Below are positions 7,501 through 32,000 of a DNA stretch of 32,000 nucleotides, piece by piece. The notes beneath the pieces were generated by a model. It was given only the letters and a program-made list of their open reading frames with translations. It was not told where the DNA came from and made no database searches. Source of the stretch: Massilicoli timonensis (GTDB lineage Bacteria > Bacillota_I > Bacilli_A > Erysipelotrichales > Erysipelotrichaceae); the NCBI RefSeq assembly GCF_900199515.1, contig NZ_LT963434.1, forward strand, positions 1,982,180-2,014,179. Reading direction: 5' to 3'. The position numbers and the translations under genes are program-made. How positions within the stretch are numbered: position 1 is the first letter of the stretch; every line of letters starts with the position of its first letter.

Positions 7501-8989
7501 AGCAGACTGTACATATCAAGGTCAGGATGTTGAAGTAATAAAGCTTACTGCATACTTTGAAAATGAAATCACAAAGACGGAAATTTCTAAAAAAGATGCA
7601 ACAACAGGAGAAGAACTTCCAGGAGCTCATCTGACATTAAAGGAAAAAGATGGAACGGTCTTTGAAACATGGATTTCTACGAATGAACCGCATATTGTTA
7701 AAGGACTTGAACCTGGAAAAACCTATGAATTGATTGAAACAAGCTCTCCTTATGGCTTTGCAATCAGCCAGACAGTTGAATTTACTGTAACAGATACTGG
7801 TGTTGTCCAGAAAGTCGAAATGATCGATGAAATGGTCATGGGAAAACTGAAATGGCTAAAGACGGGTGAAGTCTTTACAGGTACTGAAGAAGTGGAAACA
7901 GAATTTGGTATAGTGGAAAAACCAGTATTTGAAAAGAAAATCATTTCCAATGCTGAAATTGATATCTATGCAGCTGAAGAAATTAAACTAGCCAATGATA
8001 TTGTCTACTATGAAAAGGATGAACTGATTGAATCATTAACGAGCGGGGATGAGCCTGTTGAAAGCAAGGAACTTCCTGTAGGCAAATATTACTATGTTGA
8101 ACGTGTTGTGCCTGAGCCATTTGTACAGGATATGGAAAAGCATTATTTTGAGATTGAGGATAATCAGAAAAACGAACTTCAGATTATTGAAAGCGAACTT
8201 GAAAATACAAGAGCCAAGGTCAATCTGGAACTTCAGAAAATCATGGAAGAACATCCATATTATGCGGATGATTATAAGGAAGCCTATAAGAAAGTTGCTT
8301 TTGGAATCTATGCATCAGAAGATATCATGAATTATGCTGATGAAATAGGAATTGCTGAAAATACACTGATTGCAGTATGTGGTATTGATGAAAATGGACA
8401 TCTTATGGATGTACCTGAACTTCCAATTGGTTCATATCATATCGTCGAAATGGCAACGGATGATAATTACATCGTTAGTGGAGAAAGCTTTGATTTTGAA
8501 ATCACATATGAAGGCAAGGATGTTCCTGAATTGAATATCGCAATCAATGAAGGAAAGGAAATTGTCAATATGCTCAAGAGAACGGATATTGTCATCAGCA
8601 AGATTGACAAGATTTCCAAAGATCCATTGCCGGATGTAGAATTCACTCTATACGATCGAGATATGAATGTGATTGCTACAGCAGTCAGTGATAAAGATGG
8701 AATTGCTCGCTTTGAAGATATGCCTAATGGAATTTATTTCTGCAAGGAAACAAAAGCGCTGGAAGGCTATGCATTAAGCGAGGAAGTCATCAGAATAGAG
8801 CTGACTGGAGATTCAAAGGATAATGAATATCATGTAACAATGACGAATGTCCTGCTTCCTGCAAAAGGTGAGTCTGTACAGACCGGAGATACAAGCAATA
8901 TTATTCTATGGATAAGTGCTGCGGCTGTATCGGGTGTCATTGTACTGGCAACATTGAAGATCAGAAAAAGAAATGGTCGAAAGAAGTAA
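4505..8989 (+). CDS. giant cell-wall-anchored surface protein: signal peptide, NlpC/P60 (C40) peptidoglycan endopeptidase domain, about 12 Cna-B/SpaA-type repeats, C-terminal sortase signal
   Basis: The track starts at 4472, but the ATG at 4505 follows SD AGGAAAGAGG and begins a classic signal peptide ([29 protein letters not shown]). NlpC/P60 motifs: [24 protein letters not shown] and [24 protein letters not shown]. Repeated Cna-B-like units: [56 protein letters not shown], and others. C-terminus: SVQTGD, then a hydrophobic helix, then [10 protein letters not shown]. Confidence 0.9.
5276..5845 (+). repeat. tandem duplication of a 285-bp (95-aa) Cna-B-like module inside the adhesin gene
   Basis: [26 protein letters not shown]...[36 protein letters not shown] (5276-5560) aligns with [26 protein letters not shown]...[36 protein letters not shown] (5561-5845). 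The copies are diverged at DNA level, so the duplication is old. Confidence 0.85.
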
Positions 8990-9845
8990 GCTGATCATTG
9001 TATCTTTTTTGATGCTGCTGACTGGATGTGCGACAGGAGATGAAGAAATAGAATTTGTAGAGGATTTAACCATTCCTGCAGGTTCCCTCTTCAATTCTGC
9101 CGAACTTGTCAAAACCGTTAATGGGCAAAAGATAACTCAGTTTAATCTGGATGGTGACCGTATCATTTCGGATGAGGATACGGTCATCTGTCCTCTTATT
9201 GATACATCAAGGCTAGGTTCAAAGACAATACAGTATATTTACAATAACCATGAAATTGAACTGACAGTTGAAATTGTTGATGCCTCACCTCCTGTCTTTC
9301 AGGAAGAAAAGAATGAACTGACAGTTCAGGCAGGCATCTCTAAGGATGATCTGATTGAAATGATGAAAGTTAAGGATGAGTACAGTTCCTTTTCAGTGAT
9401 ACTGGAAGGAGATATGAATCTATCCAAGAGCGGAACTTATCATGTTGCAGCCATCGCAAAGGATGAAGTGGGCAATGAAGCAAGAAAAGAATACACAATT
9501 ATTGTTAGAGAGGAATCAAGTCAACAGGATAAGATAACGTCTGAAACAGAATCAGTTTCCAGACCAGCTCAAACCAGTCCTGAGCAGTCTGATGATATCA
9601 GCAGTTCTTCTCATAATGATCAAAATAAACAGGAGAGTTCCGAACCGACAAAGACAGAAATACATCTGACAGCAGAGAACAGAAGATTTCTTTTCAGTGA
9701 TGGGTATGATTATGAGAGCAGCTATCAGGCAGCTGTTACTTATGCCCAGCAGATGATAAAGGAACATAAAGCAAATGGATATAACTGCAATCCAATCAGA
9801 AATGATCGACAGGAGTATGTTGGATATGAAGTTGTATTCTATTAA
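8973..9845 (+). CDS. lipoprotein with Ig-like (DUF5011/Big-like) domains
   Basis: Signal peptide with lipobox [19 protein letters not shown]. Ig-like segments end in ...[26 protein letters not shown], followed by an S/Q/E-rich linker. The start overlaps the adhesin stop by 17 nt. Confidence 0.8.
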
Positions 9846-16849: not shown

Positions 16850-17176
16850 TTGAAAAAAGAATATTTGAATGTTTATGAATGCAGATTTCGTCAGCCGATT
16901 TCTGATTTTCCAGTCGTGAGAATCGAAGCGGATCCGAAGAATATTGCTGCTTTTATAGTGATGGCAGATTATGAAAAGGACTATGCATTATATGATCAGG
17001 ATGGGAGATTCCTGTTAACAACAATGGGTAAATATGCGGATAGAATTCCTGATGAAAACTTAAGAAAAGATATCCTTGAATATCTGATTCCTATGCAAAT
17101 GGGAGAAGAGAAAATTCCAAAGGTCAGATATGTTTTGGAAAACAGGAAGAAAAAGGAAATGTTAAGAGAAAGATGA
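16850..17176 (+). CDS. hypothetical protein
   Basis: TTG start after SD AAGGAGAAG. 108 aa. ATGA overlap with the next ORF. Confidence 0.6.
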   Translation: MKKEYLNVYECRFRQPISDFPVVRIEADPKNIAAFIVMADYEKDYALYDQDGRFLLTTMGKYADRIPDENLRKDILEYLIPMQMGEEKIPKVRYVLENRKKKEMLRER

Positions 17177-17430
17177 TTAAGATTGTTAACTTTTTAGCAT
17201 TGAATTCTAAAGGAGAGAAGATTAAAAGGATCGCGGCTATAGATACGGAAACGCAGGAACTGACAGCGATAGACTATCAGGAAGATGAGAAGATTAATCT
17301 TTCAGACTATCTTAGCAAGAGAATTGAGATGAATGATGGAAGCGTATATTTTATCAGAAATGATGGCAAGATAGGCAGACAGATACGCAAAGGCAGAAAG
17401 AAGTTTTGTGAACATAAAAGAGGAAGGTAA
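17173..17430 (+). CDS. hypothetical small basic protein
   Basis: 85-aa ORF, apparently translationally coupled to the upstream ORF. Last gene before the non-coding gap. Confidence 0.55.
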   Translation: MIKIVNFLALNSKGEKIKRIAAIDTETQELTAIDYQEDEKINLSDYLSKRIEMNDGSVYFIRNDGKIGRQIRKGRKKFCEHKRGR

Positions 17431-17431
17431 A

Positions 17432-17664
17432 TTTGTATCATGTTTTTTATTATGAATGGTATTAGCATACAGATGTTCATATGTCGTGTGAATCGTATGG
17501 CAAACAACGAAGGAATGCATCAGCGATACAGGCTATTTTGTATCATGATGGGATGACTTGCATCATACGGCAGCTTCCATTCAAATGCACGATAGAAAAA
17601 GCATATACGCATGAGATGCACTCCAAAATAAGGATAAACACGATACCTGCGATACATGATACAT
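17432..17664. repeat. cluster of short direct and inverted repeats upstream of the candidate oriT
   Basis: TTTGTATCATG occurs at 17432-17442 and 17537-17547, with an inverted copy CATGATAC at 17655-17662. CGATAC occurs at 17524-17529, 17641-17646 and 17650-17655, and CGATAG at 17590-17595. Confidence 0.5.
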
Positions 17665-17694
17665 ATTTCACTAAACCCTTTATTTAAAAGGTAA

Positions 17695-17787
17695 AACTCA
17701 CTTCTAGTGAGTTGTTCAAGTCGGGAATTGGCGCATCATTGCGTCACATTCCCTTATCCTGCTAAAAAATCATGAAGTGATTTTTTT
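17695..17787 (+). other. candidate origin of transfer (oriT): two hairpins plus a MOBP-type nic core TATCCTG|C
   Basis: Perfect hairpin AACTCACT-tct-AGTGAGTT (17695-17713). Imperfect hairpin GGGAAT-t-GGCGCA-tcat-TGCGTC-ac-ATTCCC (17723-17753). This is immediately followed by TTATCCTGC (17754-17762), then an A/T hairpin AAAAAATCA-tgaag-TGATTTTTT (17764-17786). Confidence 0.5.
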
Positions 17788-17897
17788 AAGAATTATAGTT
17801 AGATATTTATTCTTTTTCAAAGCTTATCTATGTCGAAAAAAATCAATAAGATTGGCAAGATATAAGACAAATAGTTACTGAAACCCATTAATGATTA

Positions 17898-17906
17898 TGT
17901 TATAAT
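17898..17906 (+). promoter_or_regulatory. extended -10 promoter element (TGtTATAAT) for the AAA/PD-(D/E)XK gene
   Basis: TGTTATAAT lies at 17898-17906, 26 nt upstream of the ATG at 17932, with SD GAGGTG in between. No convincing -35 was seen. Confidence 0.5.
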
Positions 17907-17931
17907 GAAACTAGAAAAGTGAGGTGGCTAT

Positions 17932-19581
17932 ATGAAAAAAAGAGTTCCATTAGGTCAAAAAAGTTATGAAAAACTAAAAACCGGAAATTATTATGTAGTC
18001 GATAAATCTTTGATGATTAAGGACTACTTGGATAAAGGAAATGAAGTCACTTTAATCACTCGACCAAGACGATTTGGAAAGACCATCAATATGTCCATGA
18101 TGGCAGAGTTCTTTGATATTACAAAGGATTCAAAAGAACTTTTTAGGGATACCAAAATCATGAAAACAGAATGTGCTTCTGAGATGAATCAGTACCCAAC
18201 CATTTTTCTTTCTTTTGCGGATGTTAAGGGTAATAAACAAATGATGATTAACAACATTCAGCAGATTCTTGCGGAACTGTATCAGAAAAACAATGATGTA
18301 TTCAAAGATTTAGATGAATATGATTTACCTTTTTTTGAAAACATTAAAAGAAATTTTTCTATGCCTGATAAAACAGATTTGAATGGTCTGGATAATGCAC
18401 TATCTTTTTTAATGAAGCAAATGGAAAGATACTATAGGAAAAAAGTTATGATATTTATCGACGAATATGATACGCCGTTCATTGAAGCCCATATTAATGG
18501 ATTCTATAATGAGATTAGAGAAAATCTATCCTCTATGCTTCATCAAGCCTTAAAATCATCGAACAGCTTACAGTATGCAATGCTGACAGGAATTCAAAGA
18601 GTAGCGAAAGAAAATCTATTCAGTGATCTGAATAATCTTGTGGTATGTACCGTTGCCGATGAAAACTATTCTCAGTATTTTGGATTTACAGAATCGGAAG
18701 TCAGTGAACTGCTGGAATATTATGATTTGGAATTAAATGATACTGTCAAGATAATGTATAATGGCTATCATTTTGGAAATACGCAGATCTATAATCCATG
18801 GTCAGTTTTAAACTATGCTGCAACTGGTAAAGATAATCCATATTGGCTATATACCAGCAGCAATAAAATGATCAGAGAGGCTATGAGAATCAGAAACCAA
18901 TCTTTTGACAGAGATTATGAAAAGCTAGTTCAGACTGGATATTTAGAGACAACCATGTATCTGGAAACAAGTTTTTTTGAAATCAGTGAAATAGAGAACT
19001 TATGGGGACTGTTTGTCAATGCAGGATATTTGACGATTGAAAAAACAGTGGATAGGCAAAATAACCTCTATGTTTTAAAGATTCCAAATCAGGAAGTTCA
19101 GCAGGAATTTAGGAACCTTACTGCCTACTATTTAGATGTAAAGGAAACAGATTTCAATGGGTTATTCAATGCCTTAAGGCTTGAAAAGAAAGAAGACTTT
19201 AAAGACAGATATCAAAACATGCTGTTAATATTACCATCATATCATGACCTAAAGGATGAAAACAGCTATCATGTTCTGTTTCTAGGCATGTGTGCATGGC
19301 TAAAGAATGATTATAAAATCATCAGCAATCGTGAAGAGGGAAAAGGCAGATGCGATATCATACTTCAGGCGAAAGATGAAAACAAGACATCCTTCGTGCT
19401 TGAATTTAAGTACATTGGTTCAGACAGCGAAGCCAGTCAGGAAAAATTGCAGACAGCTGCAAAACAGGCAGTTGAACAGATCAGAGAGAGACAATATGAT
19501 ATCGAAATAGATGGAAAAGTTGTTTATATCGGGCTTGCACATCATGGCAAGGATGCAGCAATAGAGTGGCAGGAAAAGTGA
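17932..19581 (+). CDS. AAA-ATPase-like domain plus C-terminal PD-(D/E)XK nuclease domain protein (DUF1703/PDDEXK_9-type family)
   Basis: Family-typical N-terminus MKKRVPLGQKSYEKLKTGNYYVVDKSLMIKDYLD..VTLITRPRRFGKTINMSMM (P-loop). Walker B is KVMIFIDEYDTP. C-terminal nuclease core is GRCDIILQAKDENKTSFVLEFKY (D ... E-x-K). Confidence 0.88.
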   Translation: MKKRVPLGQKSYEKLKTGNYYVVDKSLMIKDYLDKGNEVTLITRPRRFGKTINMSMMAEFFDITKDSKELFRDTKIMKTECASEMNQYPTIFLSFADVKGNKQMMINNIQQILAELYQKNNDVFKDLDEYDLPFFENIKRNFSMPDKTDLNGLDNALSFLMKQMERYYRKKVMIFIDEYDTPFIEAHINGFYNEIRENLSSMLHQALKSSNSLQYAMLTGIQRVAKENLFSDLNNLVVCTVADENYSQYFGFTESEVSELLEYYDLELNDTVKIMYNGYHFGNTQIYNPWSVLNYAATGKDNPYWLYTSSNKMIREAMRIRNQSFDRDYEKLVQTGYLETTMYLETSFFEISEIENLWGLFVNAGYLTIEKTVDRQNNLYVLKIPNQEVQQEFRNLTAYYLDVKETDFNGLFNALRLEKKEDFKDRYQNMLLILPSYHDLKDENSYHVLFLGMCAWLKNDYKIISNREEGKGRCDIILQAKDENKTSFVLEFKYIGSDSEASQEKLQTAAKQAVEQIRERQYDIEIDGKVVYIGLAHHGKDAAIEWQEK

Positions 19582-22944: not shown

Positions 22945-24366
22945 ATGAAATTGAGAAAGATAGAAGAAAACAGGATGTATATCGATCTGATTCATGGTCG
23001 TAAATTCAATAAAGGTCAGCGTGAATCCATCAGAAATGCTATTGCATCCGGACTAAATATGACGGTGCTAAAACAGCTTGTTTCAGAAAATTACAGCAGT
23101 CAGCATATAAATGAATTTGTACGTTTTTTTAAGAATGCTACATATAAGGATAACAAAACTCTGTATGCAATGTTTCGTAATCCTGATACGGAAATCGCAG
23201 TTCTGGATGAAATCAACAAGGGTCTTGAAGATGGAATGGATGAATCACGCATACTCCTGTACGCTCAGCCTAAGGTATATAGAGCGGATCAGATGGAAGA
23301 ACTTCGACTTTTTCTGAAACAGAATTCCTACACTGACGAATACTATGGCTATATATTCGATAGGGAAAAGTCGGCTGAATCAATGAAGGCTATACGCAGT
23401 GCCTGCATGATGGAGATTCCTTTTGAAGAAATCAGCTCTTTTGACTGTTATTCAAAGCTTTATCCAGCAATGATACATGCACTGACAGAAGGAATTCTTC
23501 CACAAGAAGTTCATATGATACTTGAAGTAACAGATGAGCCAAATGAATTCAATACTATCGTCAAAGGTATTTCTTTGGGATTAGATGATGAAGAAATCAA
23601 AGCGTTTCTGATGCCTGACATGAAGCATCTGGAATTTCATCTAGATCTGATGGGCGAAGTCCATGATACTGGTTTTGTGAAAAAGGTAGCGAATATCAGT
23701 GAGCTTGACAGAAGAGAACTTGTAGAAGGATTTGAAAGTGAAAAAAACTTTGAAGACTATCTGCTGCATCTTTATGGATTTTCAAAAATGGATAAGGATG
23801 AACAGATTGATGTTTTTTTGAGCGAAGCAGGAAAAATAAAAGAGAGCCGTCTTCTAGAATCAGGTTATCTGGAATCGTATATTGATGGTGCACTTCGTGA
23901 TGAGAAACGATTAAGAAAACTGGCATTGAATGGATATCTGTTAGAAGCTGTTTCTGAAGCATACCATATAGATCAGTTTCATCTTGATAGAGTTTCATTT
24001 CATCAAATTCTGGAGGACGTCTGCATGGAAAAATATGCAACATTGATTTCACAGAGAGAAACAATGACCTATTTTTTGAATCATTCCTTTAATATTCTGG
24101 AACTGATGAATGAGAATCTGCAAACCATCACGAAAGGCGATGGAATTTTGACTTTTGATATAAATGAGAACTTTAAGGTATTTCTTAAGGAGTACAAGGA
24201 CTTTTATGACATTGAGAAAGTTGCAGTAATGTATGGGAAGGATAATGGACAGATATGTGAATTATCAGCTTCTCAGCTGGAGAAGATGGCAAAGGAATCC
24301 AGAAAAATCCGACTTGATAGGGATGCTGAAATATCAAACAGATTGAAGGAAGGACGTGGAATTTGA
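22945..24366 (+). CDS. hypothetical protein with N-terminal helical repeats related to ORF 1263..1931
   Basis: SD GAGGAGG precedes the start. Repeats: NKGQRESIRNAIASGLNMTVLKQL, DTEIAVLDEINKGLEDGMDESRILLYA, RADQMEELRLFLKQN, EFNTIVKGISLGLDDEEIKAFL. Confidence 0.7.
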   Translation: MKLRKIEENRMYIDLIHGRKFNKGQRESIRNAIASGLNMTVLKQLVSENYSSQHINEFVRFFKNATYKDNKTLYAMFRNPDTEIAVLDEINKGLEDGMDESRILLYAQPKVYRADQMEELRLFLKQNSYTDEYYGYIFDREKSAESMKAIRSACMMEIPFEEISSFDCYSKLYPAMIHALTEGILPQEVHMILEVTDEPNEFNTIVKGISLGLDDEEIKAFLMPDMKHLEFHLDLMGEVHDTGFVKKVANISELDRRELVEGFESEKNFEDYLLHLYGFSKMDKDEQIDVFLSEAGKIKESRLLESGYLESYIDGALRDEKRLRKLALNGYLLEAVSEAYHIDQFHLDRVSFHQILEDVCMEKYATLISQRETMTYFLNHSFNILELMNENLQTITKGDGILTFDINENFKVFLKEYKDFYDIEKVAVMYGKDNGQICELSASQLEKMAKESRKIRLDRDAEISNRLKEGRGI

Positions 24367-26510
24367 AAAGATATGCTGGAACAGCATTATCGCTAGCTGT
24401 ACTGCTTTTATTCATTGGACCTATGGTAACGGTATATCTTTTTGACTGTTTTACTTTTTCCATACATCCATTCTATGATTATCTGAATCCGTTATATCTG
24501 TATGTCAAATTATTTTCAGAAACAAAATATCTAGTTGTATGTTTTTGTCTGGATGCAATGATCTTTATGCTGATGACCAGAAGACTAGGCTTTTTGCAGA
24601 ACAGGGATGAGCATGGAAGTGCCAAATGGGCATCTGATCATGAAATCAGCAGAATATTCAATAAGAGATCGCTTTATCGTCTGGGGATGCGAGGCGGAAA
24701 GAAAAGTCCGGGAGGTATGGTTGTAAAGAAGGTTGGACAGACAATTTGGTATGAAATGCAGTGTATTCATTCCATCATCATCGGAACGACGTCATCGGGA
24801 AAGACAAGAAAGACTCTTATTCCATCAATCATGATAGCTTCGCAGGCAGTTTCCAGTGAAGTAAAGGTGCTAAGAATTAAAGTGCTTTCCAGTCGAAAAT
24901 ATGCAAAGCATCTCGAAAGGATGCAATTCATTGAAACGTTCAGGATTGGAAACCTTGATGTTCTGTATTGTCTGATGCAGTGGAAACAGAGAAAACTAAA
25001 GAAGTTATATAAGATTTTTCATCTGGTCTATCCTAAGAAAATCGTAATTGAAAAAGGGAAGCAGATAGATCTGAACAGCTATTTTGACATACGAGATCTT
25101 GAGGATATTAACGTCAGATATTCCTTCGATGGAAATGCTCAGCTGATGGATGAAAGCATTTTGTGCTGTTCATCAGAAGGAAAGATAAGAGTCAGATTAA
25201 AGCTCGATATCAACAAGGAGTCATTCTTTGTCAATGACCCTAAAAAGGAATTATACAAGATGATGAGAAACTATCTGGTAAAGCAGGGATATGATGTCTA
25301 TCTGCTCGACCTCAGAAAACAGTGGACCGGTGATCAGTGGAACCCAATGACTTCAGTTGTTCGATGCCTAAAGGAAAATAAAACTGATGAGGCAGATATG
25401 TATGCGAAAGATATCGCAGCAGCACTCTGCCCGGAGTCTAAAATGTCAGAAAAATTATGGACAGATGGAGAGAGAGCAATTATTACAGCACTTATACTTG
25501 CAGTTGCAGGTGCAGACTGTGATGACAGCCAGAAGAATTTATATACTTGCTATCAGATTCTGAACACATTAGGACAGCCGGATGAAGATGATCATGTAGC
25601 GTTAAATGATTTCTTCAATAATCTTCCGGTGGGCAATGTTGCAAGGACAGCTTTTGGACCGGCAGCATTAGCTACGGACAGAACTCGAATGAGCTTTTAT
25701 GTATCAGCTTCAGCTACTCTTGGTATGTTTTCATCCTCACTGGTTGCTAAACAGACCTCACGCTCCTCATTTGACATTACAAAGTTTTCTTCCAGACCGA
25801 CTGCTATCTTCTTGATTAATCCTGATGAGAAATCAAGCATGGATTCATTGGCACGACTTTTTATAGATGAAATCTATCGTGTGCTGTCATTTGAAGCCAA
25901 TAAAACAGGTGGAAGGCTTCCTAGAAAATTTCATTATTTCTGGGACGAAACAGCTTCAACCGGGAAGCTGAATGACCTTCCCAAGAAGCTTTCCATCTCT
26001 CGTGGACGAAATCAGCAGTGGCATCTTTACCTTCAGGATTTCGGGCAGCTGGAAGAAATTTATGGCAAAGAGGTAACACAGACAATCAAAGCAAACTGCA
26101 ATCTTATGATTTATATTTCTACTCAGAATCTTGAAACAGCTAAGGAAATTTCAGATAAGATTGGGAGCAGGACGATTGAAACGGAAAGTGTGAGTGAGCA
26201 GACCGGAGAGTCGGTATTCATCATGCCGCATGGAAATGTCAGCCGTTCCCTTATGGCGAGACCGCTTCTAAATGCCAATGAACTGATGAAGCTGGAGGAT
26301 GGAAAAGCTGTCGTTATACGCATGCGCATGAATCCTATGCTGACAACACTGCCGGATTGCAGTGAGTATGATTTCTATGATCTTTTGGATTATTATCTGG
26401 AAGAACCGGAAAGACATGATGAAGCACTTATACCATATATTCCTGATATCAAGAATGAATTTGAAATTCCTAAACCGCTGCTGAACATGAGAATGAATAA
26501 AAAGATATAG
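24363..26510 (+). CDS. virD4: VirD4/TraG-family type IV coupling protein with an atypical insertion after the P-loop
   Basis: TTG start overlaps the upstream TGA. Two N-terminal helices. Walker A is IIIGTTSSGKTRK (about 24783-24809). FFVNDPKKELY is the DPKGE-type strand, and Walker B is HYFWDETAS. RGRNQQWHLYLQDFGQLEEIYG is typical of this family. Confidence 0.92.
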   Translation: MKRYAGTALSLAVLLLFIGPMVTVYLFDCFTFSIHPFYDYLNPLYLYVKLFSETKYLVVCFCLDAMIFMLMTRRLGFLQNRDEHGSAKWASDHEISRIFNKRSLYRLGMRGGKKSPGGMVVKKVGQTIWYEMQCIHSIIIGTTSSGKTRKTLIPSIMIASQAVSSEVKVLRIKVLSSRKYAKHLERMQFIETFRIGNLDVLYCLMQWKQRKLKKLYKIFHLVYPKKIVIEKGKQIDLNSYFDIRDLEDINVRYSFDGNAQLMDESILCCSSEGKIRVRLKLDINKESFFVNDPKKELYKMMRNYLVKQGYDVYLLDLRKQWTGDQWNPMTSVVRCLKENKTDEADMYAKDIAAALCPESKMSEKLWTDGERAIITALILAVAGADCDDSQKNLYTCYQILNTLGQPDEDDHVALNDFFNNLPVGNVARTAFGPAALATDRTRMSFYVSASATLGMFSSSLVAKQTSRSSFDITKFSSRPTAIFLINPDEKSSMDSLARLFIDEIYRVLSFEANKTGGRLPRKFHYFWDETASTGKLNDLPKKLSISRGRNQQWHLYLQDFGQLEEIYGKEVTQTIKANCNLMIYISTQNLETAKEISDKIGSRTIETESVSEQTGESVFIMPHGNVSRSLMARPLLNANELMKLEDGKAVVIRMRMNPMLTTLPDCSEYDFYDLLDYYLEEPERHDEALIPYIPDIKNEFEIPKPLLNMRMNKKI

Positions 26511-26524
26511 GAAGGTGATGCAAA

Positions 26525-27088
26525 ATGGATAATGGTAAATTCAATAAGATAAATACCCTGCTTGAGAAAAAAAGACTGATTGTTGATACAATCCTGCCTG
26601 ACGGTAACATCTTTCAGGTTTATGGCAGAAACGTTCCTCTTGAACTGGGAAAAGATGAAATCCTTATAATCAAAAGAGGAATGGATCAAAGAGAAACACT
26701 TGTTTATCAGGGATTATATACAAAAGAAATGAAAAGAGTACTTGATGAAATGCTTACAATTGGCGGCATAACAGGTATAGATAAATATGGTGAACCGATT
26801 TATGAACGAGGAACAACTGAGCAGGGTTTTGTCTATAAGAATATGTGGGCATATCTGAATCATTCTGATGAAGTCTGCTATATTCCCGAATTGAGTGATG
26901 ACCCGTATTGTTATCGTGACTTTATGAATATCTGCGGGTATGAAAAGGTTGCAGATGAGGTGTTTGGCACTGTGGACTGGCAGAGCCCGGAAGCCTATTT
27001 TAATGAACTGCAGGAAGATGAGGATTATTATAATCATTTGATAAAGGATAGCAGGAAGGAGAAAACTGTGGATGAAAGAAGCAGATAG
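26525..27088 (+). CDS. hypothetical protein
   Basis: SD GGAAGGTGA precedes the start. 187 aa. Shares GFVYKNM (26825-26845) with the first ORF of the window. Acidic C-terminus. Confidence 0.65.
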   Translation: MDNGKFNKINTLLEKKRLIVDTILPDGNIFQVYGRNVPLELGKDEILIIKRGMDQRETLVYQGLYTKEMKRVLDEMLTIGGITGIDKYGEPIYERGTTEQGFVYKNMWAYLNHSDEVCYIPELSDDPYCYRDFMNICGYEKVADEVFGTVDWQSPEAYFNELQEDEDYYNHLIKDSRKEKTVDERSR

Positions 27089-27818
27089 AACGGATATGGA
27101 CTACTGCAGAGAAATCGCAAAGCATTTTCTGTATATGGATGTTGAAACAAATCATCCGCTTGGAAGACCGTTTATCTATCATCCATATGCTAAATCAGAA
27201 TTTATTATTGATGAAAATGGAAATTTGAACAGCATTGTAGATGATACAGATACATTGGATTATTTTCGTCAGACTATTCTCAAAAGAATAGATAATACTG
27301 ATAGCTATACAGGATTCATATCTGTTTTATGCGATACCTACTTTATGGCTTTTCTAAGATTTACAAAAGATCATGTATCTAAAAAAGATCTATCTCTTTA
27401 TCTGCATCAGGCATGGATAAGCTGCGAATTTCCCAATGCTGATGCAAATCTGAAGAAAAGCCAGTTAGTGAAACTATTCAAAAAGACTGATCCTCGATAT
27501 TTAATGAATGAAGAGGATCTTGAGATGTATGGTTCATTTCAGGATATTCTTACTGTATATAGGGGAACAGGACAAAAAGATAATCAGCATGAAGCTCTTT
27601 CATGGACACTTGACAAAAAGACAGCTGAATGGTTTGCAACCCGATTCAGTGAACATGGATACGTATATCAGGCAAAGATACATAAGAAAGATGTCTTTGC
27701 CTTTTTTAACGGCCGAAATGAACAGGAGATTGTGCTGGATTACAGAAGTCTGCGAGATATATGCAGAAAAAAGGTAAAAAGAAAGGAGAGAAAAAGAAGC
27801 CTTGAGCTTCAGAAATGA
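27072..27818 (+). CDS. hypothetical protein with a C-terminal ADP-ribosyltransferase-like R-S-ExE motif set (tentative)
   Basis: SD AGGAAGGAGAA precedes the start, which overlaps the upstream gene by 17 nt. Motifs: VYRG (R164, 27561-27563), LSWT (S177, 27600-27602), NEQEIVLD (E217/E219, 27720-27728). Basic tail KKVKRKERKR. Confidence 0.7.
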   Translation: MKEADRTDMDYCREIAKHFLYMDVETNHPLGRPFIYHPYAKSEFIIDENGNLNSIVDDTDTLDYFRQTILKRIDNTDSYTGFISVLCDTYFMAFLRFTKDHVSKKDLSLYLHQAWISCEFPNADANLKKSQLVKLFKKTDPRYLMNEEDLEMYGSFQDILTVYRGTGQKDNQHEALSWTLDKKTAEWFATRFSEHGYVYQAKIHKKDVFAFFNGRNEQEIVLDYRSLRDICRKKVKRKERKRSLELQK

Positions 27819-28326
27819 TATGGCAAAAATAGGAAAAATTGAACTTATGAATTTAAAGGAAACCGATAAGGAACTGGAAGCAGATCTAATGTTGAATCAT
27901 GTCTATGTCGGAATGATAGTGATGAAACAGATGAATGATCATTGCAGCGGTATGGAGATAACGATAGGTAAGGAATATATATCTGCTGTTGAAAAGGAGG
28001 CTGAAAAATGTGTGAGGGCAGTAGGCTTTAAGAATTTTTCCAAAGGAAGAGCATTGTCCCTGCTGGCAAAATATATGCTTGGAATGGCGATACAGGAAAG
28101 AAGATATCAGGAAATCCAGTTATCATACGGTCTTGATTACTATCTGGAAGTCATATACAAAAATGATGGTCTAGCAATCTTGCCAGGGAGTGATAAAAAT
28201 ATACTGGATTTTATTGCAGTGATGCTGGATGCTGATGACTCCGTTGATTCAGTGAAGGTTGTTGGAGAAGATACCTTTACAATTGATGTTGATGAAAAGC
28301 ACACTGATGAAAGATATTTTAATTAG
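27802..28326 (+). CDS. hypothetical protein
   Basis: TTG 27802 lies 11 nt after SD AAAGGAGAG; an alternative in-frame ATG is at 27820. 174 aa, no motif recognised. Confidence 0.6.
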   Translation: MSFRNDMAKIGKIELMNLKETDKELEADLMLNHVYVGMIVMKQMNDHCSGMEITIGKEYISAVEKEAEKCVRAVGFKNFSKGRALSLLAKYMLGMAIQERRYQEIQLSYGLDYYLEVIYKNDGLAILPGSDKNILDFIAVMLDADDSVDSVKVVGEDTFTIDVDEKHTDERYFN

Positions 28327-28335
28327 GGAAAAGGA

Positions 28336-29313
28336 GTGATTGAGATAGCAGTTGACAAAACTAAAATTGACGAGCTTCTGAGAAAGAGAGATACAAAGAA
28401 AGATATCTATACCGCACATTCTGAAAAAGAAAATGAATATGTGCAAATGATACAGCCTGTGAGTAAGATTGATGAACCACTGACAATCATTATATGCAGT
28501 GAGGAAAAAGAAAATCAGTATACAGAAATCAGAGATACCTTAGAAAATGTGCTGACTTGCAGTGATATCAGATATCTGAACAGTGTCAATCATCTGGATA
28601 ATGTCAGAAGCCTGATTCTTGATTATTCTTCTTTTACAGATGCTAGTGAAGTTGCCTTTTTGATAAAGGTTTTTGAACTGCTGCACAGGAAAGCTGACAT
28701 TGTTATAGCATATGAGGAGTATACAGAAATCTCAAAGCTGCAAAAAATGATCAGGGATGAAAAAGCAGGGAATCGTGCATATGTTATTCTCTATAAAAAT
28801 CTGAAATCAGATTATGAAAGGCATATGATCATGCTTTCTGAAGCCAAAATACCTAAACAGAAACGAAAACTTCATCTTTCAGGCAGAATGAAAAAGATTA
28901 TGATCATTCTTATGATAGGCATTCTGACACTTCTGTTATTGGCAGGTGGGATTTACTTCTATATGCAGCATAATGTCGGGCAGAACATTCATAACAGGAA
29001 TCTGAATGTTCAGCTGGATATGGGAACAAGTACAATCCTGCCGATAGACAAGATATATGCAGATGATCAGGGATGCCATATCATCGTTGAAGAAATTATC
29101 GAAGGAGAAGAAACGGTGCAAATAGGATTGTACGATCAGGATCAAACAAAGATAGCTGCCGATGTACAGAAAATCGCATGTCCTGAGGAAAAGTGCAACA
29201 GTCACTATGAATTGATTTTCAGCAGAAATGAAGAAGTGAAGTATTATATTCTACAGCTGAGCAATTCCCAGACAACAAGAAATATAGAAATAGATCAGCT
29301 CTATTTCGAGTAA
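28336..29313 (+). CDS. hypothetical single-pass membrane protein
   Basis: 325 aa. About 190-aa N-terminal cytoplasmic part, transmembrane helix IMIILMIGILTLLLLAGGIYFYM, and about 110-aa C-terminal part. The start is uncertain because GTG 28336 overlaps the AAGGAG. Confidence 0.65.
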   Translation: MIEIAVDKTKIDELLRKRDTKKDIYTAHSEKENEYVQMIQPVSKIDEPLTIIICSEEKENQYTEIRDTLENVLTCSDIRYLNSVNHLDNVRSLILDYSSFTDASEVAFLIKVFELLHRKADIVIAYEEYTEISKLQKMIRDEKAGNRAYVILYKNLKSDYERHMIMLSEAKIPKQKRKLHLSGRMKKIMIILMIGILTLLLLAGGIYFYMQHNVGQNIHNRNLNVQLDMGTSTILPIDKIYADDQGCHIIVEEIIEGEETVQIGLYDQDQTKIAADVQKIACPEEKCNSHYELIFSRNEEVKYYILQLSNSQTTRNIEIDQLYFE

Positions 29314-29329
29314 AGACGAGGAGGAATAA

Positions 29330-30433
29330 TTGAATTTCAAAATTACGAAGAAACAGATCAATACAGTAATGGGTCATATATCGAAACTGTTTTCCGTAAC
29401 AGTCATTCTGCCCATATATCATTCTATCTTACTGGAAGTCAAAGAGAATGGAATCATAGTAACGGTAACAGATGGTACAGTCAGCATGAGAGAGTTCATT
29501 CAAGATGAGATTACCGTTTACGAAACAGGAAGCTGCGCCATTGATGGAAGGCTTTTTTATGATATTGTCAAAAAGGCGAATGATACAGTCATATGGATAC
29601 GTCAGGAAAATCATCAGCTGAAGCTCAAAAGCGACAAGGCGGAGATGAAGCTTGTCACTATTGATAGTGAGGCATTTCCACATATCAGCTTTGATTATCC
29701 CAAGACAAGATTCCAGATATATTCCAGAATGCTGACAGAAGCAATAAATAAGACAATTTTTTCAGCCAATGACCAGCAGACGCGACCTGTCCTTGGCGGA
29801 CTGAACTTCAAGGTTAATCAAGATAAGTGCATCATAACTGGAACAGATTCTTATCGATTGTCTCAGGTTGCCAGACCAGTTATCAGCAGCAACGAGATAT
29901 GCATTACGATTCCAAAGAAAATGCTGGGTATGCAGACAGCTTTGTTTGATGAAGACGAGGAACTGTATATCTATTTTGATGAGCACAAGGCATTGATGGC
30001 AAACGACGATATCATCATTCAAAGTGTTCTATTGGATGGAGTATTTCCTGATACGGAACTTCTGATACCAAAGCATTTTGATACAGAAATTTATTTCAAT
30101 CGCATGGCACTTCTGGAAGCTTTGGATAGAACATCCTTTTGTCGTGATGATGGCATTACGATTGTTACCTTTGACCTTCTTAATGATGAGATTGTTCTGA
30201 CAACAGAATCCAAAGAGATAGGTTCCTCTATAGAATCTATTTCTTATGAGAACGTATCAGGAAATAGAAAAGTCCATTTTTCATGTAATCAGCAGTATAT
30301 GATAGAAGCATTAAAGGCTTTTGATACACAAGTATGTGTTCTTCATTTCAATGAAGATTTGAAACCGTTCATTCTTACGGACAGTCAGGATGAAAGCCAT
30401 ATTCAATTGCTTCTGCCTACCAGAAGACATTAG
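29330..30433 (+). CDS. dnaN: DNA polymerase III beta subunit (sliding clamp) homologue encoded by the element
   Basis: TTG start 4 nt after SD GAGGAGGA. 367 aa, which is full clamp length. Collinear with my recollection of Bacillus DnaN: QTRPVLGGLNFKV...TGTDSYRLS; LLDGVFPDTELLIPKHFDTEI...LEALDRTSF; CNQQYMIEALKAF; KPFILTD...IQLLLPTRRH. Confidence 0.9.
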   Translation: MNFKITKKQINTVMGHISKLFSVTVILPIYHSILLEVKENGIIVTVTDGTVSMREFIQDEITVYETGSCAIDGRLFYDIVKKANDTVIWIRQENHQLKLKSDKAEMKLVTIDSEAFPHISFDYPKTRFQIYSRMLTEAINKTIFSANDQQTRPVLGGLNFKVNQDKCIITGTDSYRLSQVARPVISSNEICITIPKKMLGMQTALFDEDEELYIYFDEHKALMANDDIIIQSVLLDGVFPDTELLIPKHFDTEIYFNRMALLEALDRTSFCRDDGITIVTFDLLNDEIVLTTESKEIGSSIESISYENVSGNRKVHFSCNQQYMIEALKAFDTQVCVLHFNEDLKPFILTDSQDESHIQLLLPTRRH

Positions 30434-30442
30434 GGGTGATTG

Positions 30443-31540
30443 ATGTTGGAAAATACAATTGATTATAGAAATGTTTTTGGCAATCGTGAAGAGCAGCTGC
30501 TTCATTTTATGATGGATGACTTTACATATGGAATCATTCGCAACAGATATTCCAGACAGCAATCGGACTATCTGATGAAAAAATATATTGATGATCGCTT
30601 CTATACCCTACATATATTTGAAAATAGCGGGCTCTTGCTAAGAAAAGAGAAGGAATTTGTCGGACTGGTAGATATGAAAGAAAATGTTTTATATTGCAAC
30701 TATTATGGGATGCATAACTATAAGAGGATTCAAGAGGAGTTTACATTGAAGGCAAATGGTATTGAAGGCATAGAAGCAGATATTGAAAAAAGGGTTAATG
30801 AACAATTGAAGAATCTGATTTTTGATAGACGCCATGATCTTGCTAGTCATCGTATCGAAAATGAGGACTATGAACATATGAATACGATTGCCAGAAGAAA
30901 AGCATTGCGTATGTTTATGAAAGAGCCTGATTTTCATAACAAGATGGATGAAAAGACATTGCTTGATTACATGCATGACGAAGATGATTATTTCTTTGAT
31001 CTTGTGAAATCTGAAATGACCTTAAGTGATGATGATATTATTTCTTCATTTTATGATATGAATAAAATCGTTGCTGAAAAGGCGGAAGAGGCTTTTCATA
31101 ATGATAAAATTTTTAAATATCTTTCAAGAAAAGTATATAGAGCATTTAGGACATTGGACGTAATGGATGAAATTATACAGAACCGAAACCATGAATATGA
31201 TCAGTTCTATAAAAGACGAAAAATGATCATGTCGCTGTCAGATATAAATGCTAAAAATGTATCTGTTACAATTGAATACGATAATGATAGAATGACATTC
31301 AAATATGACAGAGAAAAGCTGATTCGCGAAATGTCTGATCCTACACTTATGGACAGTTTCAATTTTGGAAAGGCATTTGAACCTGTCAGGGAGTTTGTCG
31401 AAAACCATAGAAGCGGATACAGAAGCGATTTTGAGTTTTCACATATAGAAAGCATGTCATTCAAAGGAAAGACATTTTATGACAGTAAAGGAACACCTAA
31501 GATGAAGAAAAGAATGACAGAATTAGAAAGAGAAAGATGA
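30443..31540 (+). CDS. hypothetical protein
   Basis: The track starts at TTG 30440; the ATG at 30443 follows SD AGGGGTGA. About 365 aa, helical and charged, with no family recognised. An N-terminal EEQLLHF (30494-30508) weakly resembles a clamp-binding peptide. Confidence 0.65.
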   Translation: MLENTIDYRNVFGNREEQLLHFMMDDFTYGIIRNRYSRQQSDYLMKKYIDDRFYTLHIFENSGLLLRKEKEFVGLVDMKENVLYCNYYGMHNYKRIQEEFTLKANGIEGIEADIEKRVNEQLKNLIFDRRHDLASHRIENEDYEHMNTIARRKALRMFMKEPDFHNKMDEKTLLDYMHDEDDYFFDLVKSEMTLSDDDIISSFYDMNKIVAEKAEEAFHNDKIFKYLSRKVYRAFRTLDVMDEIIQNRNHEYDQFYKRRKMIMSLSDINAKNVSVTIEYDNDRMTFKYDREKLIREMSDPTLMDSFNFGKAFEPVREFVENHRSGYRSDFEFSHIESMSFKGKTFYDSKGTPKMKKRMTELERER

Positions 31541-31558
31541 TGTTCAAATTTGAACATC
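31539..31558. repeat. perfect 20-bp palindrome at a gene junction
   Basis: GATGTTCAAA|TTTGAACATC overlaps the TGA stop (31538-31540) and ends 4 nt before the SD AAAGGAGG (31563-31570) of the next gene. No T-tract follows. Confidence 0.85.
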
Positions 31559-31575
31559 TAATAAAGGAGGAATGA

Positions 31576-32000
31576 ATGGGTCAATATTATCTTGTTGCAA
31601 ATATTGATAAAAAGGAATATATGATTAGTCCTGATTTTGTGAAACTTATGGAATGGTCATATAACTATAACGATCTGATACTGGAAATGGAAAATCACAT
31701 GGCTATGGACTGGAAGGGTGATCATGTCTATGTGATAGGCGATTATGCAGGCAGCGGTGCAGATTGTAGATATACTGAACTGTTAAAAGAAATAGAAGAT
31801 AAGTTGAACATTGATACAGAAAGAGATTCTATCTTTGACAGAGTTTATAGTGAATTCAAGAAATTGCCAGTTCGCGAAGGTCTGAAAAAATATCGATATA
31901 TTGTGAATCATGCAGCTAAGGAATATATCGATAATGATCATTGCCCTTACAAGGAAAACATGGGGAGCTGGGAAGAAAATGGTAAGATTTTATCCGCAAC
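31576..32000 (+). CDS. hypothetical protein, 3'-truncated by the window edge (absent from the ORF track)
   Basis: ATG 31576 lies 5 nt after SD AAAGGAGG. The frame is open to the last base (MGQYYLVANIDKKEYMISPDFVKLMEWSYNYNDL...GDHVYVIGDYAGSG...). Confidence 0.7.
   Translation, partial: MGQYYLVANIDKKEYMISPDFVKLMEWSYNYNDLILEMENHMAMDWKGDHVYVIGDYAGSGADCRYTELLKEIEDKLNIDTERDSIFDRVYSEFKKLPVREGLKKYRYIVNHAAKEYIDNDHCPYKENMGSWEENGKILSA

Follow-up and report, generated by a model that had tools for sequence, protein, structure and literature searches.

What does an integrative conjugative element (ICE) carry besides the apparatus that transfers it, and to what end? Among gut Firmicutes, genes are transferred mainly by ICEs, whose needs beyond the transfer apparatus are little known. 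The question is raised by a 32,000-nucleotide stretch of the Massilicoli timonensis genome (the window; C4:1982180-2014179 within the 2.5-Mb genome, window coordinates being used throughout), in which seven closely spaced genes, here called p1 to p7, follow the gene for a VirD4-type coupling protein. The initial annotation of this DNA had taken the seven genes for one candidate module of establishment or anti-defence function. We find that the locus belongs to a low-GC ICE with a MobL relaxase, residing in an Erysipelotrichaceae genome, and that the seven open reading frames (ORFs) make up the first half of a ~11-kb accessory arm reaching from VirD4 as far as the integrases. Within a conserved ICE-family backbone, the block is a mosaic of sub-modules and not one machine; nor is it a new defined system, being kin to known accessory and establishment regions of ICEs and to element-borne sliding clamps. 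At about even odds (a probability of roughly 0.5), we read it as the maintenance and establishment arm of the ICE, comprising a private sliding clamp, an enzyme resembling ADP-ribosyltransferases (ARTs) that would modify the host, and methyltransferases.

Conservation and make-up of the block

All seven ORFs and the spacings originally reported for them (14, -17, -17, 9, 16, 6 and 35 nt) are reproduced by the ORF listing of the window. The upstream anchor is the VirD4 gene (24363-26510, plus strand, 715 aa; Pfam T4SS-DNA_transf at E 1.8e-46, and also TraG-D_C), which is followed after a 14-nt gap by the orphan p1 (26525-27088, plus strand, 187 aa). The ART-like p2 (27072-27818, plus strand, 248 aa) overlaps p1 by 17 nt, and is itself overlapped by 17 nt by the orphan p3 (27802-28326, plus strand, 174 aa, TTG start). 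After gaps of 9, 16 and 6 nt, respectively, come the single-pass membrane protein p4 (28336-29313, plus strand, 325 aa), the full-length beta clamp p5, a DnaN homologue (29330-30433, plus strand, 367 aa), and the three-part orphan p6 (30440-31540, plus strand, 366 aa). The orphan p7 (31576-32247, plus strand, 223 aa) starts 35 nt further on and crosses the window edge at 32000; its full sequence was taken from the genome. Homologues in related elements, at 22-59% identity, establish these ORFs as genes and exclude chance frames, with the exception of p3, for which the homologues are weak only (25-27%). The same-strand array continues past p7 with, in order, a truncated N6_Mtase-like protein (247 aa), a 131-aa ORF, an HU protein, an N6_N4 methyltransferase (317 aa) and a 144-aa ORF, and reaches two tyrosine integrases (35214-37651). 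The right-hand limit of the block is therefore the window edge and no biological boundary.

We compared this arrangement with six related elements. L012, L013 and L014 were obtained via the genomic contexts of three clamp clusters, and L016 and L017 via p4 homologues. Scanning of species genomes with the single clamp sequence returned none; a scan with the alignment of the clamp clade then found L018, in a Coprobacillaceae genome, along with chromosomal clamps, and L018 is the single ICE-type match among 185,579 species genomes. The ICE family is rare, and belongs to Erysipelotrichaceae and Coprobacillaceae. All six relatives share a layout of DUF3846, MobL, a protein of ~135 aa, a protein of ~433-473 aa, VirD4, accessory genes and integration genes, and five of them keep the methyltransferases, L014 being without both. 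As judged by tblastn against the window, VirD4 (69-78% identity), MobL (55-62%), DnaN (54-59%), p4 (37-50%) and p2 (26-52%) have counterparts in every relative. Five relatives have p1 (41-47% identity; L012, L014, L016, L017 and L018) and five have p6 (22-35%), p7 is found in three (47-54%; L014 at 54%, L016 at 47%, and L017 in part), and p3 in two (25-27%; L016 and L017). L016 carries all seven genes in unchanged order. The integration modules differ among the relatives, with tyrosine integrases the usual kind but serine recombinases in L013; since the latter replace the tyrosine integrases there, the arm travels with the transfer backbone, independently of the integration module. The retention of gene order across diverged relatives with different integration modules excludes random cargo, and in this the original expectation of co-occurrence and conserved synteny was correct.

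That the seven genes form a single module holds in part. They are conserved and co-occur, but the set is divisible: the p3 and p7 slots vary, p1-p2 relocates, and the p2, p6 and p7 families live elsewhere without a clamp. The order in L017 is VirD4, a PAPS-reductase-like gene (8522-9412), a p3-like gene, p4, DnaN, p6, p1 and p2, which means that p1-p2 moves as a pair and that p4-DnaN-p6 stays together. The slot directly 3' of VirD4, occupied in L017 by the PAPS-reductase-like gene, is variable, and holds a Schlafen/AlbA_2 plus HATPase_c_4 gene in L014 (6422-7753). Between p2 and p4, where p3 stands here, L012, L013 and L018 have an unrelated ~182-aa protein and a YodL-domain protein (for L018 we deduced this from matching coordinates). 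The slot after p6 contains p7 here and in L016, and a SUFU-domain protein of the same length in L012 and L013. We considered p7 as a SUFU-type protein itself and ruled this out, the SUFU proteins of L012 and L013 being non-homologous to it (19-22% identity).

Outside this ICE family, distant p2 homologues are found in other Firmicutes elements beside ParA/ParB, ToxN, ArdA, Rep3 and DUF3846, with neither p1 nor DnaN. Another element, one with a type IV secretion system (T4SS), has a distant p6 homologue next to a methyltransferase gene and a DarA_C/DpnD-PcfM gene, the locus examined containing no DnaN, and a p7 homologue (36% identity) is placed in another conjugative element between an orphan methyltransferase and VirD4. 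The p2, p6 and p7 families are thus roaming accessory genes of conjugative elements, and only two families are peculiar to these ICEs: p4, which has no more than nine clusters, and the clamp clade. A DNA-level search of the block against plasmids and phages gave zero matches, and none of the ART-like, p4, DnaN, p6 and p7 genes that follow VirD4 was found at close range among 72,556 plasmid records. As a separate observation, one region of the Ruminococcus albus megaplasmid pRUMAL01 (L061, 393098-399904) brings together YodL, a dnaG primase and a methyltransferase of the same family, showing that part of the accessory repertoire recurs on Clostridia plasmids.

The clamp, the ART-like protein and the proposed function

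The component of the block with the clearest identity is p5. It scores 240.8 bits against TIGR00663 (cut-off 137.65), contains the three Pfam clamp domains (PF00712, PF02767 and PF02768), all above their cut-offs, and aligns end to end with B. subtilis DnaN (4TR6). By comparison with 4TR6, the motifs TDSYRL (TDSHRL), LLDGxxPD, N..Y, PF and QLLLPxR are kept; from the clamps of E. coli and B. subtilis we take these to map to the partner-binding cleft of domains II/III. The cleft-motif columns are invariant in the 14-member ICE clade, in which there are 74 invariant columns overall. Despite this integrity, p5 is far removed from the clamp of its host: the two are ~31% identical (BLAST), while the host DnaN shares 70% identity with the DnaN of an uncultured Erysipelotrichaceae bacterium and 63% with the Dielma one. 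Among 5.8 billion proteins the ICE clamp clade comprises 13 clusters with 49-97% identity, after which identity drops to at most 36% (chromosomal clamps), and in a tree the clade forms a long branch separate from the Erysipelotrichaceae chromosomal clamps. Clamps are also carried by other mobile elements, namely phages and large plasmids (PHROG 947), and with these p5 shares the full-length, three-domain DnaN structure (E 9e-54 against phrog_947); a dnaN homologue is present on 220 PLSDB plasmids, 29 of them predicted to be conjugative. Unlike those clamps, none of which is more than 32% identical to p5, the ICE clade is confined to one ICE family, and its clamp is always preceded by the same orphan membrane protein, p4.

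Indeed, p4 lies directly upstream of DnaN in all six relatives. The protein consists of a cytoplasmic domain of ~185 aa, one transmembrane helix (~187-210), which is preceded by KQKRK...RMKK, and an outside domain of ~115 aa. Both domains are conserved, the cytoplasmic one with the motif YLNSVNHLDNV...LLHR and the outside one with two conserved cysteines; to judge by its sequence, the outside domain looks beta-rich. A p4 family profile found nothing meaningful among PDB sequences. Given the architecture, we considered p4 as a VirB8-like or TraM-like T4SS part, which is unlikely since the outside domain reads as all-beta.

The annotation that only the clamp has a recognisable family is accurate for Pfam, NCBIfam and PADLOC, but p2 matches phrog_4776 (E 9e-28; listed as function unknown). 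The p2 family numbers 71 clusters. An alignment of 48 sequences shows no variation at Y163-R164-G165, T179 and R191, and conservation of 90% or more at S177-W178, R215, E217 and E219. In the AlphaFold model of p2 (two domains, the ART-like one being C-terminal; predicted local distance difference test score, pLDDT, 94) the triad residues fall on strands 159-166, 177-179 and 217-222, and the order is that of the R-S-E type, with Arg on strand 1, Ser-x-Ser/Thr on strand 2 and (Q/E)-x-E on strand 5. A Foldseek search of the PDB returned mostly ART folds as the leading matches (Tpt1/KptA, CNFy fragments, PARP12 and PARP1), which were weak (E 0.075-1.4, TM-score 0.2-0.3), with cholera toxin A1 at rank 30. 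In BFVD, p2 has a full-length match to a Gordonia phage protein (E 3e-12), further matches to segments of ~1000-aa phage proteins, and a weak match (E 0.034) to a mycobacteriophage 'ADP-ribosyltransferase'. Going by residue pattern and model, p2 is probably an active ART-like enzyme of the R-S-E type.

In the order and context of Arg, Ser-x-Thr and Glu-x-Glu, p2 resembles the R-S-E ARTs of phages (T4 Alt, ModA and ModB; PMC5512222), and like them it is carried by an invading element and has homologues in phages; it differs from them in having no curated ART match, a weak fold match and an N-terminal domain of ~155 aa. Being R-S-E, it also differs from ART-PolyVal, the H-Y-D enzyme that Iyer et al. 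describe from conjugative elements. None of the seven proteins matches the Pfam models of the polyvalent-protein repertoire (Iyer et al. 2017: ART-PolyVal, YodL, ArdA/ArdC and LPDs). The neighbourhood resembles that repertoire, with YodL in the p3/p4 slot of relatives, but the seven genes are not members of it; DUF3846, which precedes MobL here, is absent from the paper of Iyer et al.

The other proteins are orphans. We found no family for p1, p3 or p7 in Pfam, PHROGs, NCBIfam or PADLOC. For p1, the only match in the 72,556 plasmid records is a partial homologue (a hypothetical protein, 40% identical) on a 185-kb plasmid of Clostridium baratii str. Sullivan. There are 43 representatives of p6 among 1.8 billion proteins. 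The original description of p6 as a helical protein of ~365 aa was right about its size (366 aa) and incomplete about its fold: the model (pLDDT 87) begins with a beta domain, continues with a long helical stretch and ends in an alpha/beta domain. No fold in the PDB matches it (probability at most 0.10), and a search of PDB sequences with the family profile found nothing meaningful. A role as a clamp-loader delta-like subunit was rejected for p6, given its combination of beta domain, coiled helices and alpha/beta domain and the lack of a PDB match. The block thus yields four or five orphan protein families (p1, p3, p4, p6 and p7), among which p6 has a confident model that is nonetheless unlike solved folds.

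What would these components do together? The analysis shows that the genes are real, that their order is kept among relatives, that the clamp is intact and that the triad of p2 is conserved; the timing of expression and all biochemical activities, set out next, we infer. The host clamp loader would load the ICE clamp, which would recruit the host polymerase for synthesis of element DNA, both in rolling-circle replication after excision and in complementary-strand synthesis after transfer. The clamp would work alongside other replication and partition functions of the same element, which encodes ParA, ParB, a DnaG-type primase, an HTH_36 protein and HU. The ART-like p2 would modify a host target to the element's benefit, and the two downstream orphan methyltransferases would probably protect the element from restriction. 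The p3 and p7 genes, replaced by YodL or SUFU genes in relatives, occupy variable slots of the arm, and p6 represents a family also seen in other conjugative elements. This ICE family keeps its own clamp under long-term selection, together with p4, the ART-like enzyme and orphan methyltransferases. If the clamp supports replication or tethers enzymes, ICE establishment would depend in part on replisome parts that the element itself supplies.

Several points weigh against this interpretation. It was DnaN or p4 that led to five of the six relatives, and the presence of these anchor genes is in part by construction; an unbiased survey anchored on VirD4, covering 400 genomes of the class plus a metagenome collection, found zero close relatives. 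L014 has the clamp but neither the methyltransferases nor p6. Since p4 and p6 have no recognisable fold or family, assigning them a place in replication or establishment is guesswork. For p2, no curated ART family of Pfam or NCBIfam is matched at E of 0.1 or below, a profile search of PDB sequences found nothing, and the ART fold matches are weak (PDB E 0.075 or worse). Finally, ICEs such as ICEBs1 replicate with the host clamp, and a private one is not obviously needed.

Order of entry and rival explanations

The initial annotation placed the block on the early-entering side of the element, and in this it is unsupported, though not refuted. The sole characterised MobL system is pLS20, in which the template strand is nicked and oriT, the origin of transfer, lies upstream of the relaxase gene (PMC5313138). 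In our ICE, the spacer at 17.2-17.9 kb, a non-coding stretch of 750 bp (17176-17932) 3' of the T4SS genes, contains repeated GATAC/GTATCAT motifs and a short inverted repeat, and is a plausible location of oriT. With the polarity of pLS20, and with all genes on the plus strand, the minus strand would be sent, from ~17.5 kb toward lower coordinates. By this analogy, the first to enter would be the T4SS genes, the primase and ParAB, and the last would be the integrases, the methyltransferases, the block, VirD4 and MobL, with the block probably in the last third. In Samuel et al. 2024 position is taken as that of oriT relative to the relaxase gene (PMC11541004), our reading of the method being that the leading region lies across oriT from the relaxase. 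Our block is downstream of the relaxase, and the pLS20 precedent predicts late entry. More generally, genes near a relaxase need not enter early, and the sole experimental precedent for MobL says the opposite.

Could the block nevertheless be a leading-region island of anti-defence and establishment genes, which enters early and is expressed at once against restriction, CRISPR and abortive infection? Such islands (PMC11541004) resemble it in their dense unidirectional genes, mostly of unknown function, and in their orphan methyltransferases. The block is likewise conserved, unidirectional and tightly packed, with orphan methyltransferases and HU at its 3' side; in relatives, this arm includes genes for YodL, SUFU, PAPS-reductase-like and Schlafen-like proteins, and p2 and p7 homologues stand elsewhere beside ArdA or orphan methyltransferases. 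In MOBT elements, unlike pLS20, the nick is on the coding strand, and a coding-strand nick here would put the block 9-15 kb from the putative oriT. Against this stand its position on the relaxase side of that oriT, opposite to the leading region as we read the published method, and entry in the last third if the polarity of pLS20 applies. Furthermore, PADLOC-DB 2.0 returned 0 defence families for the seven proteins or for three neighbouring ones, in Pfam and NCBIfam the seven match no curated family indicative of anti-defence (no dedicated anti-defence library was searched), Rfam gave no match, and no known anti-defence gene, single-stranded DNA-binding protein (SSB) or single-stranded DNA promoter was detected in the block with Pfam, PHROGs, NCBIfam, PADLOC and Rfam. 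We therefore regard a leading-region island as unlikely. The anti-defence label finds no backing in these searches; the establishment label fares better, as the neighbourhood has that flavour (orphan methyltransferases and HU downstream; YodL, SUFU and DUF3846 in relatives).

Two further explanations concern parts of the block. The first pair of genes could be a toxin-antitoxin or addiction pair on the ParST model, in which p2 is an ART toxin and p1, encoded upstream, its antidote; the remainder of the block would be unrelated cargo. Cognate antitoxins of ART toxins are known, p1 shares 17 nt with p2, the two were relocated jointly in L017, and the catalytic-type triad of p2 is conserved. An antidote-dependent toxin, however, would be expected to keep its partner. 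The p2 family has ~70 clusters, and the neighbours in those distant contexts that we examined are related neither to p1 nor to each other. No cognate neighbour of the kind seen in ParST or DarTG systems accompanies the p2 family: p1 is not beside distant p2 homologues, the p1-p2 pairing holds only inside this ICE family, and even here L013 has p2 but merely a 52-aa ORF at the p1 position. An addiction pair is, in our estimate, improbable. Still more so, and very improbable, is that the block is a cargo anti-phage system, or that its clamp is a substitute target when toxins poison the host clamp. Toxins that target clamps exist (SocB and RipA), and those known act at the clamp cleft (PMC12795458). 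The ICE clamp is very divergent from that of the host, and a membrane protein together with an ART-like enzyme recalls abortive-infection designs. Yet its cleft motifs are kept unaltered, which makes it probable that the ICE clamp is still toxin-sensitive; PADLOC found none of its systems, and the gene order is conserved within a backbone, unlike in a variable defence hotspot.

A different use of the private clamp, beyond added replisome capacity, would be as a docking platform for element enzymes, and the lead for it lies downstream of the block. The N4/N6 methyltransferase of 317 aa (33791-34744, past the window) begins with MVQKEQGIQLSLYDYF, which includes GIQLSLYDYF. The orthologues have GIQMTLFDYF (L012, L013 and L018), GIQLSLFDYF (L016) or GIQMTLFNYF (L017). 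In all five relatives that have the enzyme, the motif Q-[LM]-[ST]-L-[FY] occupies residues ~10-14, after a short variable leader rich in K/E/Q. A wider form, Q-[LMI]-[ST]-L-[FYL]-D-Y-F, covers the enzyme here and its counterparts at L012:16322, L016:17099, L017:16726, L018:15509, L053:7996 and G534:C97:58136. The consensus clamp-binding pentapeptide is QL[SD]LF, and proteins tethered to the clamp by a terminal peptide of this type include Hda, MutS and translesion polymerases. The N-terminal motif of the methyltransferase matches this consensus in sequence; unlike in those tethered proteins, it abuts a probable folded domain. The enzyme might then bind the private clamp through its N-terminal QLSLF-type peptide and methylate element DNA during synthesis, evading restriction.

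This docking proposal we consider doubtful. The motif is conserved and matches the clamp-binding consensus, it is the sole recurrent terminal motif of the clamp-binding kind in the proteins of the relatives, and the ICE clamp keeps its binding cleft. The methyltransferases of L053 and G534, however, share the motif with no clamp gene in the flanks examined (3-10 kb for L053, ~18 kb per side for G534), and the motif thus needs no private clamp. In two plasmid homologues the motif is missing and the segment there is helix-like, which suggests that the motif may be helix 1 of a winged-helix domain instead of a free peptide; L014 has the clamp and no methyltransferase; and a chance 5-mer near a terminus is not rare, a looser pattern having given five terminal matches. 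With a similarly small chance of being right, the divergent clamp and its dedicated membrane protein might form the landing pad of a private replisome hub, where the new ICE strand would be methylated, and perhaps otherwise processed, during its synthesis at the membrane-bound transfer site. If true, this would be a replication-coupled self-protection built into the ICE backbone. The maintenance and establishment arm as set out above remains the reading we prefer.

Regulatory sites and the host element

Generic promoter-like sites are no more frequent between 21000 and 32000 than expected by chance (42 found versus 39.4 expected), and the two plus-strand terminator-like sites in the block (27517 and 30141) are both within coding sequence. 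A signature promoter-like motif of the ICE, CTGACA-N17-CATAAT with the 12-mer GCACGACATAAT, stands before parA, int1 and int2 (-8363, 35173 and 36536, respectively), and no copy of it was found in the window. This pattern fits a single long predicted unit that begins in the relaxase region and covers the block. In L012, L013 and L018 the signature motif occurs directly after DnaN (~11106), before a 94-aa ORF and p6, and the arm is thus split there in these three elements.

The spacer between p6 and p7 contains a perfect 16-bp palindrome, TGTTCAAATTTGAACA (31541-31556). It recurs exactly in L016 (13239, also between p6 and p7), L012 (17316) and L014, elements whose proteins are only 25-60% identical to those here. 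In L014 a one-base variant also lies just upstream of the p7 homologue, the exact and variant sites of L014 together being those at 17515 and 11470, and a palindrome of this type is thus found upstream of p7 in three elements. An imperfect copy is also located just upstream of the parA promoter of this ICE (~-8384). The outer arms recall parS, and the palindrome is a candidate ParB site or operator.

The ICE as a whole has a GC content of 33-40%, compared with 44.6% for the chromosome, and all its genes are on the plus strand. To the left of the window lie the genes for ParA, ParB, a C5 methyltransferase, the DnaG-type primase and the HTH_36 protein. The first part of the window encodes an NlpC/P60-SpaA adhesin, a TrbL/VirB6-like protein, VirB4 and an M23 peptidase. 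The non-coding stretch follows, and after it come an AAA-ATPase/PD-(D/E)XK gene, a helix-turn-helix or ribbon-helix-helix (HTH/RHH) protein and DUF3846, then the MobL relaxase (PF18555, E 6e-26), ORFs of 141 and 473 aa, and VirD4. Like pLS20 (MobL/RelLS20 type; PMC5313138), the element has a MobL relaxase with an HTH/RHH gene upstream of the relaxase gene, a long unidirectional conjugation array and a large non-coding region 5' of the relaxase operon as a plausible oriT; unlike the plasmid pLS20, it is integrative and has two tyrosine integrases. An 11-bp direct repeat, TTTTATAGCAA, the only candidate found for att sites, is present outside the window at about -9700, just outside an integrase fragment, and at 37728, 77 bp past int2. 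We tentatively take the two copies as attL/attR candidates, which would give an ICE of ~47.4 kb.

The AAA-ATPase/PD-(D/E)XK gene (17932-19581) has the putative oriT on one side and the relaxase operon on the other. A metagenomic copy of the ICE that is nearly identical (L003:1-2518) has one full gene of this kind plus a split pair of 353 aa and 190 aa, and the differing arrangement suggests a cassette that is duplicated, mobile or decaying. Finally, past the window, the integrases are followed by a second island (38133-54000) of still lower GC content (24-31%), which opens with a minus-strand gene resembling those of Y-family polymerases, along with a LexA/S24-like HTH-peptidase gene; the ICE thus probably has another element as its direct neighbour on the integrase side.

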